Positions 232 to 7,974 of a stretch of DNA of 7,974 bases are shown here, in pieces. Numbering within the stretch: position 1 is the first letter of the stretch; each line of letters opens with the position of its first letter. Source of the stretch: a virus (lineage: Duplodnaviria > Heunggongvirae > Uroviricota > Caudoviricetes); the IMG/VR virus record IMGVR_UViG_2648501437_000023; one strand, given 5' to 3'. Under the pieces are notes generated by a model. The model had not been told where the DNA came from, ran no database searches, and saw nothing but the letters and a program-made list of their open reading frames with translations. Both the position numbers and the translations under genes were made by a program.

Positions 232-441
232 ATGGGGCTGGATTGCGTGCCTATATCAACCTACTGCCGCGACGCGGGAGAAACGGTTGATGCCGTTAAC
301 AAACGGATACAAAGAGGAATATGGAAAGAAGGGGTTCATGTATTAAAAGTCGACGGAGTTAAAGAACGCTGGGTCGACTTAATAGAGGTTTCAAAATGGG
401 CAAGAAAGAACAAGGATTATTATCTCTGCCAAGAGGAGTAA
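232..441 (+). CDS. excisionase-like small DNA-binding protein (putative Xis / recombination directionality factor)
   Basis: 69-aa ORF immediately upstream of, and overlapping by 46 nt, a tyrosine integrase on the same strand. GAGGTGA Shine-Dalgarno at 223-229. Size, basic/aromatic composition and position match prophage Xis-like proteins; the family call is from memory, not a search. Confidence 0.5.
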   Translation: MGLDCVPISTYCRDAGETVDAVNKRIQRGIWKEGVHVLKVDGVKERWVDLIEVSKWARKNKDYYLCQEE

Positions 442-1574
442 CTATTCGTAAGCATAAAACTGCTTCAACACTAGTTATCACTTTCACATATAAAGGGGTT
501 CTTTGCAGGGAGCCCCTGTCTCGGCTTGAGGCAAATACACGTGGTATTAAATATGCTGAGCGCCTGCTAGGGGAGATACAAAATCAGATCGCCAGCGGAA
601 CGTTTGAATATGCGAAATATTTCCCCAGTTCCAAAAAACTGGAGTTATTCGGTGTAGTAAAGAAAACCAAAAATATTAAGTCCTATCTTGATGAATACCT
701 GAAAATTTGCATGAACCGCAATCTGTCGCCGTCAACCATTGGCGGTTACGAAAAATGTCTATCAGCACTATCAGAACTACATAAACTACATGTAACAGAA
801 TTGACGCCTGCGGTACTAAAAAATTGGATAGCCAGCCGAAAAACTAAGCTGAAAACAATCAGGAATAACCTGTCATTTCTGCGCAGCGCCATTGATGAGG
901 CTGTAACTGATGGCCTGTTGACTATTAACCCGGTAACTCTTGTCAGCGCCAGCCGGTATCACGTGGTCGACAGTAAACCGAACGCCGACGATTACGAAGT
1001 TGATCCGTTTGCGCCTGCGGAAACCAGTGCCATATATCAGCACTGCAAGTATCAGGAATGGCAGAATCTGTTCCGCTTCGCCTTCAATACAGGGCTACGC
1101 AGCTCTGAGCTATGCGCATTACGTTGGACCGATATCGACTTTATAGGTAATACAGCGCACATACAGGCGGCCAGTGTCGTAGGGGTACTTAAAGGCACCA
1201 AGACAAAAGCCGGTACCCGTAAGGTGGAGCTGAACAGTGAGGCGCTGGCGGCCCTGCAGGCGCAGAAGCAATACACCTTTATGAAAAGTGAGTTCATATT
1301 CAGCGATCCGAAAACGGGAGATCCCTGGACGAACGCCGACGCTATCCGTAAAAAAGCATGGGTGCCGACCCTGAAAAAAGCTGGTGTGCGCTACCGTAAC
1401 CCGTACCAGACGCGCCACACATTCGCCACCAGACACATTAGCCAGGGTGTAAACCTTTTCTGGCTTGCCGGGCAGATGGGGCATAAGGGGCCGGAAATGC
1501 TGTTCCGCAATTACGGTAAATACCTGGCTGAATACGACGGGAAAACCGCAATGGAATCTGGAATGACTCAATAA
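396..1574 (+). CDS. int: tyrosine recombinase (phage integrase family)
   Basis: 392-aa ORF with AGAGG Shine-Dalgarno 7 nt upstream of ATG 396. C-terminal catalytic signature visible in the translation: GLRSSEL (box I Arg), TRHTFATRH, GHKG, and terminal RNYGKY (nucleophile Tyr). N-terminus (LPRGVTIRKHK…FTYKG) resembles the arm-type DNA-binding domain of enterobacterial prophage integrases. Confidence 0.9.
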   Translation: MGKKEQGLLSLPRGVTIRKHKTASTLVITFTYKGVLCREPLSRLEANTRGIKYAERLLGEIQNQIASGTFEYAKYFPSSKKLELFGVVKKTKNIKSYLDEYLKICMNRNLSPSTIGGYEKCLSALSELHKLHVTELTPAVLKNWIASRKTKLKTIRNNLSFLRSAIDEAVTDGLLTINPVTLVSASRYHVVDSKPNADDYEVDPFAPAETSAIYQHCKYQEWQNLFRFAFNTGLRSSELCALRWTDIDFIGNTAHIQAASVVGVLKGTKTKAGTRKVELNSEALAALQAQKQYTFMKSEFIFSDPKTGDPWTNADAIRKKAWVPTLKKAGVRYRNPYQTRHTFATRHISQGVNLFWLAGQMGHKGPEMLFRNYGKYLAEYDGKTAMESGMTQ

Positions 1575-1652
1575 GACGTTTTTCGCCAAATGGCGTAATG
1601 TTCAAGTCCTTGTTATATGAAGGTATTAACGCAGGAGCCATTCAGCAACCTT

Positions 1653-1994
1653 TTAATGGTAGTTAATTTCCCTGTAGTTCTTCTGCATGTATAGAGCAAT
1701 TGCCGCTTCAATTTTCTTCAGCAGATTACTGCTTACATACTGAGGATACTGATCTGCTGGCTTCACAACATAGCGCAATTTTTCTTTGTTCATGGCGATC
1801 TCAGCGAACGGGATCACGTCACCGTCACGAACCTCATTGTTCAATGTCACAATAAACAGCTGACGTGCCGGGGAGACACGATCACTCAGTCTTCTCACGA
1901 AGAACTCGTTTGCTGTGTTTGAGTCAACAAAAGAACTGACGAGTTGAGTCCGACGCTCAATCGTCTGTATCGATCTTCTCGCTACTGTTCTCAT
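1653..1994 (-). CDS. hypothetical protein (113 aa) between int and the att site; possible moron/cargo gene
   Basis: Minus-strand ORF with AGGAG Shine-Dalgarno (plus-strand CTCCT at 2001-2005) 6 nt upstream of its ATG (1992-1994). Convergent with int. No recognisable motifs. Confidence 0.5.
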   Translation of the reverse strand: MRTVARRSIQTIERRTQLVSSFVDSNTANEFFVRRLSDRVSPARQLFIVTLNNEVRDGDVIPFAEIAMNKEKLRYVVKPADQYPQYVSSNLLKKIEAAIALYMQKNYREINYH

Positions 1995-2010
1995 GCTAGT
2001 CTCCTCAACA

Positions 2011-2071
2011 CTTCACTGGCTGTGCAGTGAAGGTACAAAAAGCCACTGATGATAACAGCGTCATCAGTGGC
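2011..2071 (-). terminator. two adjacent perfect hairpins; the second is followed by a T5 run on the minus strand (possible intrinsic terminator or structured leader)
   Basis: Hairpin 1: cttcactg (2011-2018) / cagtgaag (2025-2032), 8-bp stem, 6-nt loop. Hairpin 2: gccactgatga (2042-2052) / tcatcagtggc (2061-2071), 11-bp perfect stem, 8-nt loop; plus-strand AAAAA at 2037-2041 gives TTTTT directly 3' of the hairpin on the minus strand. Sits just upstream of the minus-strand gene 1653-1994. Confidence 0.3.
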
Positions 2072-2323
2072 CCTTGATGGTGATAACCGCAGTTACCTAA
2101 ATAGTATGATATTACCTTACGGGTAATTCTTCAACGATTGCTCTGAATTGAATAGTCTTGAAGTGCTATGAACAGCACAAAACAGCGCTAATCACCGCCC
2201 CAGTGGCGCCTAAACACTTCAAAATGTTGGACAGAATCAGGACGTTAGAGGTACTACAATATGCACGTAAAATGCACGTGAGGTATTTTAAATTAGAAAA
2301 ATCATTAATATTCAATTGGTTAA

Positions 2324-2364
2324 GAATTTTTCGGATACGGGTTCAACTCCCGCCAGCTCCACCA
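2324..2364 (+). other. ssrA: 3'-terminal fragment of tmRNA (ssrA): T-arm, acceptor 3' strand and CCA; att-site remnant, not an intact tmRNA gene
   Basis: tcggatacgggttcaactcccgccagctccacca matches the enterobacterial tmRNA 3' end as I recall it (…TCGGACGCGGGTTCAACTCCCGCCAGCTCCACCA) with two substitutions. The ~320 nt upstream (2000-2320) contains no tmRNA 5' acceptor strand or tag-peptide reading frame, so only the 3' end is present. Confidence 0.7.
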
Positions 2365-2400
2365 CTTTTTAGTTGTTTGAAGTTCAATGAAGTCTACTAA

Positions 2401-2432
2401 GCCCACACAGCACAAGCTCTGCGGGCTTTTTT
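2401..2432 (+). terminator. possible rho-independent terminator downstream of the ssrA 3' fragment
   Basis: Imperfect hairpin gcccacacag (2401-2410) / ctctgcgggc (2417-2426), 8 of 10 positions paired, followed by TTTTTT at 2427-2432. Confidence 0.35.
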
Positions 2433-2489
2433 ACGTCTATTGTCGTCCAGTGAGAATTGCTGAGAACTACGAGTTATGGCACCCTGAAT

Positions 2490-2526
2490 GGGACCCACTA
2501 AGAAGGGTCCAAAAACCGAGGGTCCC
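2490..2526. promoter_or_regulatory. GGGACCC … GGGTCC … GGGTCCC repeat set overlapping the integrase ribosome-binding site
   Basis: GGGACCC at 2490-2496 is the exact reverse complement of GGGTCCC at 2520-2526; a direct GGGTCC copy sits at 2505-2510, each followed by an A-run. The distal copy overlaps the GAGGG Shine-Dalgarno (2518-2522) of the integrase start at 2530. Confidence 0.25.
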
Positions 2527-2529
2527 AAA

Positions 2530-3759
2530 ATGGCAAAAATCGCTAAGAAGCTCACTGACACTGAAATCAAAAGCACCAAGCCAGCCGATAAAGAAATCAA
2601 CTTGTTTGACGGTGATGGTCTGATTCTACGAATCGCTCCTTTGGCGAAAGGAGGCAAGAAAAATTGGTATTTCAGGTATGCAGTACCAGTGAGCAAGAAA
2701 AGAACCAAAATGAGCCTTGGGACATATCCTCACCTTACCCTTGCAAGAGCCAGAGCCTTACGTGATGAATATCTCTCCTTTCTGGCAAATGGTGTTGATC
2801 CCCAAATCCATAACAACGATAAGGCGAAGGCATTAAAGAGTGCTACTGAGCACACTCTCCAAGCCGTAGCGCGGAAATGGTTAGATGAGAAGGTAAAGAC
2901 ATCAGGTATCTCACAAGACCATGCAGCAGACATCTGGCGCAGCTTAGAGAGAAATGTCTTTCCCGGTCTGGGTAATGTCCCTATCAATGAGATCCGACCT
3001 AAGCTCTTAAAACAACACCTTGATCCTATTGAGCAACGAGGCGTATTGGAAACTCTACGCCGTATCATTTCACGTCTGAATGAAATCTTCCGGTGGGCAG
3101 CTACTGAAGAACTTATTGAGTTCAACCCGGCTGACAACCTTGGTCAAAGATTCAGTAAACCAAAAAAGCAAAATATGCCTGCCCTTCCCCCAAGCGAATT
3201 GCCAAGGTTTATGGAATCTTTGACGAATGCGTCAATCCGGTTGGAAACACGTATGCTAATTGAATGGCAATTGTTGACATGGGTTCGTCCGGGTGAAGCC
3301 GTTCGCGCAAGGTGGTCTGATATTGATACAACCAACAGCATTTGGAACATTCCTGCTGATTTCATGAAAATGAAAAAGCTTCACAAAGTTCCTTTGAGTA
3401 AAGAAGCTTTGCGCATCCTTGAATTAATGAAATCAATAAGTGGGCATAGAGAATGGGTTTTCCCCAGCATAAAAGCGCCTCTTAATCATATGCATGAACA
3501 AACAGCCAACGCAGCTATCATCCGAATGGGGTTCGGAGGCGAGCTTGTAGCTCACGGTATGCGTTCTATTGCACGAACAGCGGCAGAGGAGTCTGGTAAA
3601 TTCAGAGCTGAAGTTCTTGAGGCAGCGCTTGCCCACTCGAAAAAAGATGAAATTATCGCAGCATACAATCGTGCAGAATATCTGATAGAGCGACAGAGTT
3701 TGATGCAATGGTGGAGTGATTACGTTCAAGCTCAAAGATCAAATGCTCTGGTAGCCTAA
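2530..3759 (+). CDS. int: P4-type (IntA/CP4-57-like) tyrosine integrase
   Basis: N-terminus MAKIAKKLTDTEIKSTKPADKEINLFDGDGLILRI matches the P4-family arm-binding domain. Catalytic motifs VRPGEAVRARWSDID, AHGMRSIART, LAHS, AYNRAEY. GAGGG Shine-Dalgarno 7 nt upstream of ATG 2530; the track's 2488 start adds 14 residues with no RBS, so 2530 is preferred. Lies about 165 bp downstream of the ssrA 3' fragment, the typical ssrA-int arrangement. Confidence 0.9.
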   Translation: MAKIAKKLTDTEIKSTKPADKEINLFDGDGLILRIAPLAKGGKKNWYFRYAVPVSKKRTKMSLGTYPHLTLARARALRDEYLSFLANGVDPQIHNNDKAKALKSATEHTLQAVARKWLDEKVKTSGISQDHAADIWRSLERNVFPGLGNVPINEIRPKLLKQHLDPIEQRGVLETLRRIISRLNEIFRWAATEELIEFNPADNLGQRFSKPKKQNMPALPPSELPRFMESLTNASIRLETRMLIEWQLLTWVRPGEAVRARWSDIDTTNSIWNIPADFMKMKKLHKVPLSKEALRILELMKSISGHREWVFPSIKAPLNHMHEQTANAAIIRMGFGGELVAHGMRSIARTAAEESGKFRAEVLEAALAHSKKDEIIAAYNRAEYLIERQSLMQWWSDYVQAQRSNALVA

Positions 3760-3797
3760 GTATCAGAATAGCTAATATAATCCTGAAGGTAAAGAAA

Positions 3798-4214
3798 ATG
3801 GAAACCCTATTCAAAGTTTTTGAAAAATTTAGTTCCAGACCACTTTTTTTTATTTTTTTCGGACTCTCACTTTGTGAATTTTTTCAGAAACAATCTGTTC
3901 TGATGAATCCATCAGCAGATAACATCGCGAAATTATTCGCAGCCATGATATTAGTTGTTTTTTTTACTTGGGGATTTGAATGGCTAATCTTCAAGTTCAA
4001 TGTAAACCTTGAACCTCATGATCAAGGCGATATTGGACCAACAATTGGAACGGCTACTTTAGCTGTATACTTAGTTTATGCCTTTCACTTTCTCAGTGAA
4101 AATCCTGAAGCATTAAATTTAAAGTTATTAACTAACTCTGGCTTTATATACAGCACAACTCTATTATTATTCTCATTAGAATGCATGAAGCTTAGAAGAC
4201 TTAAACAAAAATAA
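3798..4214 (+). CDS. small integral membrane protein (138 aa, 3-4 predicted TM helices), function unknown
   Basis: Hydrophobic stretches PLFFIFFGLSLCEFF, IAKLFAAMILVVFFTWGF, IGTATLAVYLVYAFHFL, GFIYSTTLLLFSL. AT-rich like the downstream operon. Weak RBS, so start and expression are uncertain. Confidence 0.45.
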   Translation: METLFKVFEKFSSRPLFFIFFGLSLCEFFQKQSVLMNPSADNIAKLFAAMILVVFFTWGFEWLIFKFNVNLEPHDQGDIGPTIGTATLAVYLVYAFHFLSENPEALNLKLLTNSGFIYSTTLLLFSLECMKLRRLKQK

Positions 4215-4285
4215 ACAACATCATTGTGATGATAAATATAAAATAGGCATGGCGAAAAAAAATCACCACGCCTAAAATATAATAA

Positions 4286-6052
4286 TTATGGTAGCATCAT
4301 TGATACATAATCCACACCAATCCTTGAGCTATACTGAGACGCTATAGCCTGATATCTTTCTGCATAACCAGTTCTCAGTTGAGATTTAAGTTTGAGTCGG
4401 ACAGGAACATTTTGCACGTTGCCATCCATATTACTTAAAAACACGGCAGAAATAATATTTTTTTCTTCGCCATCAACTGTTGTTCCATGATTCAACACCA
4501 CCATATAATCAACAACAGGAAGCGTTTTATCCCCTTCGAAAATAGAGAGATATTTTCTTTGATTTTTATGCATTACATATATATATTTCGAATGTTCAGC
4601 AAATGGCAATGCTTTACTCTGACTGGCGTTAAAAAGCTCCAGAACTTTAATGAGCCTGTGCGGACTTAATCTTACATGGTGAGGGTCGTTACCCTGAGTA
4701 GGAACCAAATCACATGCCGCAGATACACATAAATACCATTTGTTCGACTCTGTATCAAAGAAAATAGTGCCAGTAGAAATATGACCATCTTCAAAATTCT
4801 TTGAAGACAAATTCATATTTAAAGCATGATACATTTCGTGATAAGTATCATTATTTGATGGCAGATCCATTTTTGAAGAGCAATATTGGAGCAATGCAGC
4901 AACTCCGCTGTTAGCGTATTCATTTGAATAGCTATCAAAAACACTTTTGATAAATTCATCCAGCGTATTATTATTTTTAAGTCTTTGATAAAGCTCTTCT
5001 GATAAATTACCAAATACAAAGTCAATATTTCTACATCTAATATCAGGCGAGTCTGATTTTAATATCTCATTTAACCACGCAGCTTGACCGTAATGATCGT
5101 TAGCCAAATGATTTACAAAAGATAAAGCCTCAGCTTCGATTGCATTCTGAATTTCAGATTTTATTAACTGATAATAAGATGGTTTCCATTCAATGAGAGA
5201 ATCATTGAGAGTTTGCCAAATCCTATCTCCATCGTTTTCATGATCATCTTGAACCTTATGAAATAGGGAGACAAAGATATTACCACATTGAATCCATTTT
5301 ACTCCGCTTTCATCACCCCGAATGACATTGCCAGATGTGTTGCTAGAAATAATTGCATTTCTAGACACAGCATATTCTGCAATCATTTTTGCAATGAAGT
5401 TTTTATCCTTTTGTTCCTCCAACACAGCATCATCATGTATTAATCTTTTAATTCTTCTACAAGGCTTACTGTCTTTAATATAGGCTATTGTTTCATCTCT
5501 TGTGAGAGCTTTATTACCATTATCATTTAAGTTCGGTAATACAACGTCTTCCCAATAACTTTGGACATCTTCATTATCGTAGTCAATGATCAAGCTGTTG
5601 ATATCCAGAGCACCTTTGAGAGTCGATGATATCTGCATCCAAACCGTTTCTAAATTCTCTCTAGTATATATTACAATCATATTTAAATGATCGGAGTCTT
5701 TCAAATCTTGTAATAGTTTAAGTGTTTTATCAGGTGCATTATTATCAAGATGATAATCTACAATAATAAGATCTGATTTTCTAATCCGATCCACATCGAA
5801 ATTAACAGAACCATTGTCAACATCACAAATCATATTTTTAGATTGAAAAAAGCTCTCAAGAGTAGCGGCTCGTTTAGATGAGTCAATTTTGTTGTAGTCT
5901 AAATCAACTTCGTTATTCAACGCCCTGATTGATTCAGAATACGTCAGAAAATCGTCATCAATCATGACAACGGAACGAATTGCATTTTCGCAGAAAGTTT
6001 TCTGGACAAGAGAATTATAATTTGCCACTGTCATATTAGAACTCCACTCCAT
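4286..6052 (-). CDS. response-regulator-like protein: N-terminal receiver (REC) domain plus ~450-aa C-terminal domain of unknown function (candidate effector)
   Basis: 588-aa ORF. REC hallmarks: VVMIDDD (acidic pair, D32-D34), DLIIVDYHLDNNAPDKTLKLL (phospho-acceptor Asp D99; codon checked at 5756-5758), NMIVIYT (conserved Thr), STLK (Lys). Rest of the protein shows no HTH or other recognisable output motif. Alternative start at 6034 (MTVANY…) has a GGAG Shine-Dalgarno 7 nt upstream and sits 1 nt after the kinase stop. Confidence 0.8.
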   Translation of the reverse strand: MEWSSNMTVANYNSLVQKTFCENAIRSVVMIDDDFLTYSESIRALNNEVDLDYNKIDSSKRAATLESFFQSKNMICDVDNGSVNFDVDRIRKSDLIIVDYHLDNNAPDKTLKLLQDLKDSDHLNMIVIYTRENLETVWMQISSTLKGALDINSLIIDYDNEDVQSYWEDVVLPNLNDNGNKALTRDETIAYIKDSKPCRRIKRLIHDDAVLEEQKDKNFIAKMIAEYAVSRNAIISSNTSGNVIRGDESGVKWIQCGNIFVSLFHKVQDDHENDGDRIWQTLNDSLIEWKPSYYQLIKSEIQNAIEAEALSFVNHLANDHYGQAAWLNEILKSDSPDIRCRNIDFVFGNLSEELYQRLKNNNTLDEFIKSVFDSYSNEYANSGVAALLQYCSSKMDLPSNNDTYHEMYHALNMNLSSKNFEDGHISTGTIFFDTESNKWYLCVSAACDLVPTQGNDPHHVRLSPHRLIKVLELFNASQSKALPFAEHSKYIYVMHKNQRKYLSIFEGDKTLPVVDYMVVLNHGTTVDGEEKNIISAVFLSNMDGNVQNVPVRLKLKSQLRTGYAERYQAIASQYSSRIGVDYVSMMLP

Positions 6053-7754
6053 TGAACTGGATCACAAAATTAGCGCCATCTTTTATTAAATAGTTATCGC
6101 CTTCATCAGGTTCTGAATACCATATTTTATGATGTGCAACAGCAAGGTTTTCTCGACATAGATACAGACCTACCCCATGTCCATTTGCTCTTTTGCTATA
6201 AAATAGTTCAAATAGTCGCGGGATATCATCGGTATCAATTGCCGGACCAGAATTTGCTATGATAACCAAAGAATTCACAAAACCAATCTTTATGAGCCTA
6301 TTATTTGACAGACTGACCCAATACATTGCATTGTTGATAATATTAGTAAAAACAGGATAGATCCTTGATGGTATATCTGTTATTGCGATTTGCTTAAACT
6401 CTTCACTAAATTCAATAGTTATTCGTTGCCGTTCGAAACGCTCCCCAAAGAACTTCAGGACATAATCCATGATATTTTTTCCAGTTATTCTCTGCCTGGA
6501 TTGATAACCTGATATTTTCAAAGGTGATAAGAAACGTATTTGTTGAGTAAGCGATCTGTGAGCATTTAACGCCAATGAAAAACCAGGGTGTTCTTTTACA
6601 GAAGTAGGAAGAGAGTTTAGTCCTCTGGTTACCATAGAATCCATTTCTTCAAGTTCATGAGATATTATCTCAACACTAATACCTAACTGTGCAAGCGCGT
6701 TTAAACTTTTAGCTTTTTCTTCAAAATATGAGCGTTCTTCTTCAGATAATGAGAATGCTGAATCTAAGTTTATACCTTCAAATAATCTATCGAGACCTTT
6801 TATTATTGATTGATATTTGAAAGTTAGGGTATCAACTGACTCAACATATAAACTATCGAGCAAATTAAACACATTTTCAATTTGTGAATCATTATCTATT
6901 GAATCAACAACTGATATAGTTTTAGCATAATAATCACTTCGATCATCCTTTATTTCATCGGCCCATTTTTTTAAAAGAGAATGTATCTTCTCCTCTATCG
7001 TGTTATTAAACTTAGTTAGTTTAGAATTAATAATACCTTGATTTTTTTCAAGGTGATTTTTCGCTGACAATGAAGGCTCAAGTTTATTTAATTCAGAATC
7101 AAGTTTATTAATTGCTAACTTCATTTGTAGAATATACGCAGAGAACTCATTAAATTTATCTCTGTAGTCTCTATATTTCTCTTCATACATTCCAAGTTTT
7201 GGAGGTTTGATAGGCGTTTTAATTTCACTGCGCAACGCATCTAAGTTTGTAAGATCACTGTCTATAATTTTAAGATAGTTTAAATCTAACGAACCATCAG
7301 TTTTATCAAGCTTAGTTTTCAGCCTTTTAACAGCCTCCAAGGAAGCATCAAGAACTGGTGTCTGATTCTTCAAAGCTTCTGAAAAACTTTTTTGTGTTGA
7401 TTTTCGAGCTTGTTGTTGAGCAGATTTTCTTAACTCTTTTTCACGCTTAACTTGTTCTAAAAGCTCTTTACGGTCATCAGAACGTGAACCAAAAAATCTA
7501 TCAGCAAGTTCAGTTAACAAATTAGATATAATAGTTTTCAGTTCTCTTGCAGCCTGGTTTCTTATGAATCCCTCTCTCCCCGACTTATCTTTCAGCTCTT
7601 TATTACTGGATTGAGTAATTCCAATATAACCAAAAATCCTTCTATTAGACCAATAATATCGCCCTGCATTCCATGAACGTCTTTCTTCTATCTGGAAGAA
7701 ATCATTATCTACTCGACCATAAGGTAATACTCTCAAGCTATCCCTAAAAATCAT
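6036..7754 (-). CDS. soluble histidine-kinase-like protein: ~350-aa coiled-coil-rich N-terminal region, HisKA-like H-box, HATPase_c domain
   Basis: 572-aa ORF. H-box GISVEIISHELEEM (His366; codon checked at 6657-6659). N-box PVFTNIINNAMYW, G1 IANSGPAID, F-box LFELFYSKR, G2 GHGVGL (codons checked at 6165-6182). No hydrophobic TM segments; N-terminal half is K/E/L-rich. Stop overlaps the start of the downstream REC gene. Confidence 0.8.
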   Translation of the reverse strand: MIFRDSLRVLPYGRVDNDFFQIEERRSWNAGRYYWSNRRIFGYIGITQSSNKELKDKSGREGFIRNQAARELKTIISNLLTELADRFFGSRSDDRKELLEQVKREKELRKSAQQQARKSTQKSFSEALKNQTPVLDASLEAVKRLKTKLDKTDGSLDLNYLKIIDSDLTNLDALRSEIKTPIKPPKLGMYEEKYRDYRDKFNEFSAYILQMKLAINKLDSELNKLEPSLSAKNHLEKNQGIINSKLTKFNNTIEEKIHSLLKKWADEIKDDRSDYYAKTISVVDSIDNDSQIENVFNLLDSLYVESVDTLTFKYQSIIKGLDRLFEGINLDSAFSLSEEERSYFEEKAKSLNALAQLGISVEIISHELEEMDSMVTRGLNSLPTSVKEHPGFSLALNAHRSLTQQIRFLSPLKISGYQSRQRITGKNIMDYVLKFFGERFERQRITIEFSEEFKQIAITDIPSRIYPVFTNIINNAMYWVSLSNNRLIKIGFVNSLVIIANSGPAIDTDDIPRLFELFYSKRANGHGVGLYLCRENLAVAHHKIWYSEPDEGDNYLIKDGANFVIQFNGVEF

Positions 7755-7974
7755 TAGTCCTGCATACTTTTTGGCCTTAAGATCAAAGTGGGAATGTTCA
7801 CGTTCAGTATGTGATGTATTTTGTGAAAGGAATTCAAACGTTCCTATCTGAAGCTCAAATGGGCCGACCCCTGCGTGATCCTACCCACGTAATATGGACA
7901 CAGGCCTAAGCGAGGTTCTTGTTTTCAAATTGTTCCGGACTGAGGCCGCCACACCAACTGTGCCGCCGCCACCG

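Follow-up and report, generated by a model that had tools for sequence, protein, structure and literature searches.

According to the Islander paper, an element that integrates into a tDNA cuts it in two and makes good the loss with sequence of its own, and the leftover piece of the original gene shows where the island ends. The paper also allows for tandem arrays, each member of which needs an integrase and a fragment of its own, and of all integration targets it found the tmRNA gene to be the most enriched (PMC4383910). Sakai Sp17 is integrated at this gene, ssrA (PMC8190617), Stx phages are found there in O111 (PMC2323221), and the usual interpretation of the tandem prophages of STEC and EPEC is that they share an att site (PMC8112680). 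CP4-57 of K-12, whose biology has been described together with that of AlpA (PMC5148205), has the genes intA and alpA and the attR remnant psaA.

We analyzed a stretch of 7,974 nucleotides, here called the window, from an IMG/VR virus record (IMGVR_UViG_2648501437_000023), in which a piece of the 3′ end of ssrA lies between two integrase genes. Positions 2324–2369 very probably mark the int-proximal end of a lambdoid prophage inserted by site-specific recombination into the 3′ end of ssrA in E. coli, between the gene and an older island, and contain the 3′ end that this insertion displaced. The locus is like the Islander-type tDNA elements in its split target, regenerated gene, displaced fragment next to an integrase, and stacking, and nothing essential differs; it departs from an Islander tandem array in that the right-hand island has no distal fragment. 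It also occupies the same place as the EHEC and EPEC prophages at ssrA, the PhiR12 phages (PV340549–PV340554) among them, with integrases that are 93–99% identical in DNA across O26, O103, O55, O157, and PhiR12, and it differs from them only in strain details, namely a 742-bp deletion and a mosaic pairing of arm and island. A literature search on PhiR12 returned only unrelated papers.

The arrangement is already known, ordinary, and well documented, and near-identical ones are present in dozens of sequenced genomes. The value of the analysis lies mostly in annotation: the prophage boundary is placed to the base, the “mutated” T-stem is read as phage attP sequence, and the right-hand island as a stranded remnant. 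The locus also illustrates cleanly how, in pathogenic E. coli, ssrA comes to gather foreign DNA: an arriving element would regenerate the gene and move the older ones outward. A 2003 article by Williams, “Traffic at the tmRNA gene,” is also relevant to the elements at this gene.

The orphan 3′ end of ssrA

The plus strand of the window at 2324–2364 reads GAATTTTTCGGATACGGGTTCAACTCCCGCCAGCTCCACCA. The 26-mer GGGTTCAACTCCCGCCAGCTCCACCA occurs once in the window (2339–2364, plus strand), had matches in none of 200 dinucleotide-preserving shuffles, and agrees in every position with the last 26 nt of ssrA in a close relative, which has the gene intact at 363 nt (L002, 16254–16279). With ARAGORN, the window gave neither a tmRNA nor a tRNA; that relative served as a positive control, and there the program detected the full 363-nt tmRNA, with the tag ANDENYALAA. 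The Rfam tmRNA model (RF00023) gave 18.6 bits against a gathering score of 47 (E = 2e-4 over 2273–2364). In this alignment the posterior probability was high only for the T-arm, the acceptor strand, and CCA (the 3′ 45 nt), the 5′ acceptor strand was absent, and 278 model positions were skipped. The combination of a full tRNA-like domain, a tag frame, pseudoknots, and a score above threshold that defines a tmRNA gene was not found here, and an alignment of ssrA with the junctions revealed no ssrA similarity further upstream of the fragment. The earlier note on this DNA had held that only the last ~40 nt of tmRNA are present, and the negative result of ARAGORN and the restriction of the Rfam alignment to the 3′ tRNA-like end agree with it.

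To the left of the perfect match lies an imperfect ssrA-like stretch (2324–2337, plus strand). Where ssrA has GGAATTTCGGACGCGGG, the window has AGAATTTTTCGGATACGGG, that is, CG is replaced by TA at 2336–2337 and two nucleotides, TT, are inserted; A2337 stands opposite C2353, and the T-stem is reduced from five pairs to four. The earlier note had recorded two substitutions in a tmRNA copy, one of them causing the A·C mismatch in the T-stem. Both are there, together with the TT insertion that it did not mention, but their origin is the phage arm and not a mutated tmRNA. An A in place of the G of ssrA stands directly 5′ of CGGG in all five attP contigs (L013–L017) and in all the prophage arms examined, which points to the A·C mismatch as a constant feature of the phage arm at the left edge of homology. 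The substitutions, this mismatch included, belong to the phage attP arm just left of the identity block and do not represent decay of a tmRNA copy.

The expectation value of the Rfam match could be taken to favor a different origin of the fragment, as a decayed duplicate or as a divergent or two-piece tmRNA gene, and not as an att junction. The probability of this is practically nil. The score is far below the gathering score and covers the 3′ 45 nt only, ARAGORN found nothing in the window while it found the real gene in the relative, the flanks switch exactly at the identity block, and the DNA upstream is a phage arm that is present in attP too. The 320 nt upstream, which the earlier note had named as the place where a divergent full-length tmRNA might be encoded, are phage attP arm, with 99.4% identity to the PhiR12 records and counterparts in attP viral contigs; a divergent full-length tmRNA is ruled out by ARAGORN, by Rfam, and by the phage identity of this upstream DNA. 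In the best explanation, an att junction, the orphan fragment would have no tmRNA expression and no role beyond that of an att site.

A partial match to the Rfam model of IsrM, a Salmonella sRNA, was also seen at 2355–2432 (53 bits against a gathering score of 376). It covers only the two ends of the model (1–20 and 274–329), and these ends fall on the ssrA tail and the island terminator. An IsrM gene at this position was ruled out by the low score and the restriction to the model ends. The match suggests that IsrM may lie, in Salmonella, in a homologous att-adjacent region with an insertion of ~250 nt.

The locus in complete genomes

The window matched E. coli chromosomes at 98–100% identity, and at least 80% of it was found in one place in 84 of the 5426 complete genomes, mostly of O26, O103, and related EHEC; the whole window had no exact match in this collection. 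The best overall match was O103:H2 PV16-126, which is 99.9% identical over 1561–7974 of the window and only 93% over 6–1566. The left part (1–2337) was 100% identical to E110019 and 99.4% identical to PhiR12_1 to PhiR12_5. Since the left part matches E110019 and the right part PV16-126, the source strain appears to be a mosaic of a phage-arm variant and an island variant.

In PV16-126, the intact ssrA lies at 3140916–3141278, just after smpB, and the orphan fragment at ~3194010, 52.7 kb from the end of ssrA. Both are on the plus strand and enclose a complete-looking lambdoid prophage, which is the configuration that Islander expects of a displaced fragment. The gene order of the prophage is DinI, espK, espN, nleL, tail, head (capsid), terminase, lysis, Q, replication, cI/cro-like, and then xis and int. 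Beyond the orphan fragment come the island, IS3, a truncated ygaQ, glaH, lhgO, and gabDTP. In this relative, then, a prophage with T3SS effectors is stacked on an island with two-component-like cargo. An intact ssrA had been presumed further to the left, outside the window. In PV16-126, the closest relative with the whole arrangement, it is there, beyond the lambdoid prophage; for the source genome, we infer the same from the relatives.

Each of the two parts also occurs alone. EC93 offers a natural empty site (attB) for the prophage: its intact ssrA runs straight into this island, complete with the same cargo and IS3 and with an integrase of identical protein sequence (WP_001341819.1). The junction of ssrA and island was matched at 99% identity or more in many other genomes. 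In E110019, no island is present: the same end of the prophage borders on bare chromosome, which is what comes after psaA in K-12, and ypjA lies next to that.

The att core and its junctions

Alignment of the copies, which the earlier note had proposed as a way to define the att core, was done across the four att forms and yielded a 32-bp identity block, CGGGTTCAACTCCCGCCAGCTCCACCACTTTT (2338–2369, plus strand), common to attB, attP, and both junctions. The block contains the T-stem and loop, the 3′ acceptor strand, CCA (ending at 2364), and five more nucleotides; once other hosts are included, it is 27 bp long and ends at CCA. The prophage boundary can be described as phage arm up to 2337, shared core at 2338–2369, and island from 2370. 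At the ssrA-proximal junction, the attB sequence is on the left and the phage on the right, and at the junction in the window, the phage is on the left and attB on the right. When attB and the two junctions are aligned with two attP sequences, the switch from one flank to the other falls exactly at the block, which is the standard signature of integrase-mediated insertion. The halves of attB (from EC93) and attP (from L014, L015, and L017) around a shared block are thus arranged as in the junctions described by Islander.

An exact 43-mer of the predicted attP had no match in IMG/VR. A 35-mer that joins the phage-specific A before CGGG to the P′-specific CTTTTGA was found in three IMG/VR viral contigs and two metagenome contigs (L013–L017). 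L014, L015, and L017 each show P arm, block, and P′ arm in one uninterrupted run, with no island. L014 is a 55-kb viral contig whose attP is internal, and L017 has xis-int directly upstream of attP, with 84% identity to the window. These contigs could in principle come from tandem polylysogens instead of free phage. The records of PhiR12_1, PhiR12_5, and phi467 were also considered as sources of attP and were rejected, because their limits are prophage-like, lying either in the core or beyond it in island DNA.

The contigs bear on the idea that prophage and island form a single composite with two integrases and are mobilised together. The records of PhiR12_5 and phi467 do include island DNA beyond the orphan copy, with a CP4-57-type integrase. 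We nevertheless regard such a composite as extremely unlikely: the island stands alone in EC93 and the prophage in E110019, the attP contigs run from the P arm straight into the P′ arm, and the PhiR12_5 record starts in the ssrA core and overshoots into island DNA unlike the variant in the window, which suggests a boundary call in a lysogen.

For a prophage inserted at ssrA, the left junction is predicted to be an intact 363-nt ssrA ending in …GGACGCGGGTTCAACTCCCGCCAGCTCCACCA, followed by CTTTTGATAGGACTGCAA. Excision is predicted to leave an attB in which the 3′ end of ssrA is joined to CTTTTTAGTTGTTTGAAG, and to give an attP that reads …TTCGGATACGGG…CCACCACTTTTGATAGG….

Directly after CCACCA, one and the same phage arm continues into four different downstream sequences: the island of the window (also in PV16-126), a second island variant (PhiR12_5 record), a K-12-type CP4-57 (strain M8), and bare chromosome (E110019). 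From these four joins, strand exchange must be placed inside CGGG…CCACCA (2338–2364), to judge by the alignments. The T-region is a common sub-site of tDNA integration, among the site classes listed by Islander (PMC4383910). Because the block starts at the T-stem, the crossover would probably lie in or near the 7-nt T-loop (2342–2348), which would serve as the overlap region, with the halves of the T-stem as inverted core sites.

Candidate arm-type sites were found on both arms. In the P arm, a tandem doublet, AATATGCACGT/AAAATGCACGT, is repeated with a spacing of 11 bp (2258–2279, plus strand). The motif ATGCACGT occurs exactly twice in the window (2261–2279), with 0.17 occurrences expected, and the doublet is also present at the other end of the prophage, 88–106 bp beyond the core (L002, 16372–16390), and in the attP contigs. 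Its position is kept in the otherwise diverged arms of O26 and O55, as ATGCACT variants. The ATGCAC doublets on the two arms are probably arm-type Int sites.

A related observation concerns O26 11368, in which the doublet is ATGCACT and not ATGCACG and the integrase is ~93% identical in DNA; arm site and integrase may co-vary.

The xis-int module and its spacer

The left part of the window carries the recombination module of a lambdoid prophage. The excisionase gene xis (232–441, plus strand) matched PHROGs phrog_2917, “excisionase” (E = 2.5e-41), and its homologue in strain M8 is annotated as an excisionase; searches of xis against Pfam and NCBIfam gave no match. It overlaps by 46 nt the start of int (396–1574, plus strand), which encodes a lambda-type tyrosine integrase with the Pfam domains Arm-DNA-bind_2 (4e-21) and Phage_integrase (2e-19) and a SAM-like domain, and which belongs to phrog_1. 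The arm-binding, SAM-like, and catalytic signatures (PF12167, PF13102/PF02899, PF00589) were all above their cut-offs, as expected of an arm-binding tyrosine integrase. The DNA identity of int was 100% with E. coli E110019 and 99.4% with the PhiR12 phages. With xis directly upstream of it, int ends 750 nt before the ssrA fragment, and both genes are transcribed toward the fragment. A xis-int module pointing at the fragment from the left, as originally described, is borne out by the domain and PHROGs matches and by the plus-strand orientation, and int is placed where Islander expects an integrase, inside the element and next to the junction.

The module resembles that of lambda in its arm-binding integrase, its overlapping upstream xis, its core block, and the repeated motifs on both arms ~60–105 bp from the core. 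The core of lambda attB and attP has 15 bp. The present one differs in lying inside an RNA gene and in its length of 27–32 bp, and in having a variable cargo slot between int and attP.

The end of int carries the scar of a 742-bp deletion (1561–1566) between GAATGA microhomologies, which was identified with BLAST and by direct comparison with E110019 and PV16-126. The deletion removed most of a cargo gene for a hypothetical protein of 255 aa (compare L008, 10566–11307) and changed the last two codons of int from KK to TQ (…ESGMKK-stop to …ESGMTQ-stop). Every record that matched the spacer between int and att (10 E. coli genomes and the PhiR12 phages) had the extra DNA and hence aligned in two pieces; the deletion appears to be specific to the window. 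The activity of this int/xis pair, with the last two codons of the integrase changed, and likewise the arm sites and the crossover position, are predictions from the DNA.

The spacer between int and att also contains a 113-aa cargo ORF (1653–1994, minus strand) that matched phrog_2594, function not known (E = 9e-26), and is annotated as hypothetical in the relatives. PADLOC gave no defense-system assignment for this ORF.

Across the relatives, the spacer is a variable cargo slot (window 1575–2257; L009 4567–5990; L011 5580–7000). Its cargo is the 113-aa ORF here, the same ORF plus the 255-aa gene in relatives, and a DUF4760 gene instead in the O26 and O55 prophages, while in the metagenome contig L017 the spacer is nearly empty. 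Just upstream of the minus-strand ORF is a perfect 11-bp inverted repeat, GCCACTGATGA…TCATCAGTGGC (2042–2071), which the scan classed as terminator-like on the minus strand.

The island to the right

The left end of the island has a Rho-independent terminator (2399–2432, plus strand), reported by the terminator scan, with a fold energy of −15 kcal/mol (z = −3.9) that none of 200 shuffles equalled. It stands directly after the intact ssrA in prophage-free strains and behind the orphan fragment here, and K-12 has a homologous hairpin after ssrA. A direct repeat, GGGTCCAAAAA/GGGTCCCAAAA (2505–2530, plus strand; two matches with 0.01 expected, and none in 200 shuffles), ends at the start codon of the island integrase and is a possible arm-type or autoregulatory site for that enzyme. 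The repeat at the corresponding position in K-12 CP4-57 is another one, AGGCCCA; differing repeats would fit integrase-specific arm or operator sites.

The integrase gene (2530–3759, plus strand) encodes a P4/CP4-57-type tyrosine integrase with the Pfam domains Arm-DNA-bind_3, Phage_int_M, and Phage_integrase and a match to NCBIfam NF007246 (440.6 bits against a cut-off of 434). The frame is open from 2488, and the RefSeq start is at 2530. The protein is 48% identical to K-12 IntA over its full length, and the distance from the end of CCA to its start is 166 nt, against 204 nt in K-12. The Arm-DNA-bind_3/DUF4102, Phage_int_M, and catalytic domains, in a gene downstream of the tDNA and in the same orientation, are what characterizes P4/CP4-57 integrases. 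The reading of the right side as a P4-type integrase in the standard ssrA-int arrangement is upheld by this position and orientation, which are those of intA in K-12.

The cargo consists of three genes. The first encodes a hypothetical protein of 138 aa (3798–4214, plus strand; phrog_6556, function not known, E = 1e-70) that had no match in Pfam and is identical (WP_000448925.1) in EC93, PV16-126, and O26 11368. The other two form a two-component-like pair on the minus strand (4286–7754), one with HEF_HK and HATPase_c domains (6036–7754; PF19191, PF02518) and the other with Response_reg_2 (4286–6052; PF19192). Domains of the HEF_HK and Response_reg_2 types are two-component-like elements tied to restriction-modification and paraMORC systems (PMC8011034). 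PADLOC assigned no system to the island cargo. The pair is possibly an uncharacterised defense or conflict system beside the integrase.

The HEF_HK and HATPase_c protein has 572 aa, and the Response_reg_2 protein has 588 aa with a long, unassigned C-terminal region.

The island is like CP4-57 in having a P4-type integrase ~170–200 nt downstream of the 3′ end of ssrA and in the same orientation, a homologous terminator hairpin ahead of it, and the same integrase domain architecture. Unlike CP4-57, it is a shorter variant, with an integrase and three cargo genes, no alpA, no psaA-like attR, and an IS3 end in the relatives, and in the window it is separated from the live ssrA by a prophage. We found no alpA-like gene among the ORFs of the window or in the annotated islands of PV16-126, EC93, and O26. 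Nor was there a distal ssrA fragment to the right of the island, either within the window or over 25 kb of PV16-126 (16-mer, up to 3 mismatches); in PV16-126, the search returned the orphan itself and one chance-level match with three mismatches, on the opposite strand inside gabD. At the right end of the island, IS3 adjoins a truncated ygaQ in PV16-126 and EC93. The two features of a mobile island, an AlpA-type excision factor and a distal attR copy, are therefore lacking in the sequences searched. With no distal att copy, no alpA, and an IS3 end in the relatives, the island is a stranded, immobile remnant and not a second complete element, and only the prophage keeps both junctions. As the island has its own integrase (2530–3759) but no fragment of its own, the two elements do not make up an Islander tandem array; the arrangement is one complete prophage stacked on an island remnant.

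In K-12, the degenerate distal copy of CP4-57, psaA, reads CCGCCAGCCCACCA, and its homology to ssrA begins only near the 3′ half of the T-arm. From this starting point, the P4-type integrase probably uses a sub-site further 3′ than that of the lambdoid integrase. The original proposal of two elements stacked at one att site holds as regards the stacking; the site is not literally one, since each integrase probably has its own sub-site within the ssrA 3′ end, and the right-hand element is a remnant.

Order of insertion

In the mechanism that we propose, the phage attP would carry a copy of the 3′ end of ssrA, and recombination within the shared block would restore a wild-type ssrA at the opposite prophage end, which in the relatives is ~53 kb further left. 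The displaced original 3′ end, with all that followed it, would stay at the int end. What had earlier followed ssrA would be the older CP4-57/P4-type island, with its terminator, integrase, and cargo; since the island already stood behind ssrA in this scheme, insertion of the phage would leave the orphan fragment between two integrase genes. Island first and phage second is the simplest history, because the island-only state is widespread with the same truncation and the phage arm is found beside several neighbors.

The same final gene order would arise if the lambdoid phage had come to ssrA first and the P4-type island had later entered the orphan copy at the int end. This copy keeps the full 3′-terminal ssrA sequence used by CP4-57 in K-12 (CCGCCAGCTCCACCA) and could act as a secondary attB. 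We consider the reverse order very unlikely, however. In EC93, which has no prophage at ssrA, the island directly follows the intact gene, and there too its integrase is identical and its right end truncated at the IS3; its junction with ssrA recurs in the many genomes noted above. The same phage arm is found next to other island variants and to bare chromosome, which fits a mobile phage that reached pre-existing, lineage-specific islands. Moreover, a later insertion of the island should have left a second orphan copy at its right end, and none was found there.

Cross-talk between the two elements can be imagined. The stranded P4-type integrase might still be active and recombine the live ssrA with the orphan copy, excising the effector-carrying prophage without the phage Int and Xis, or composite excision might let the phage bring the island cargo, the two-component-like pair, to new hosts; taken jointly, we hold these outcomes to be unlikely. 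Excision of the prophage by the P4-type integrase would be conceivable because both ssrA copies carry its 3′-terminal core in direct orientation.

Other features of related sequences

Two records described as complete phage genomes, PhiR12_5 (PV340554.1; L005, 4680–6258) and phi467 (LN997803.1; L012), do not stop at the orphan ssrA core but take in island DNA of the CP4-57 type, with a truncated or full intA and an IS. This overshoot is most likely an error in placing the prophage boundary in a lysogen, and not packaged DNA, and the records should be used with caution as phage genomes. In O26:H11 11368, the orphan copy (L009, 6068–6100) reads …CCAGCTCCACTTTTTAG and has lost 3 nt of CCACCAC.

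Finally, the sequence that follows the live gene was compared. In a lysogen, ssrA is followed by the P′-arm sequence of the phage (L002, 16393–16432), and the first terminator-like hairpin, CCAGATCTCACGGTCTGG with a run of T, comes ~130 nt after CCA. The distance from CCA to the start of the island terminator in prophage-free strains is ~35 nt. From these distances, the 3′ trailer of the tmRNA precursor would differ between lysogens and non-lysogens.
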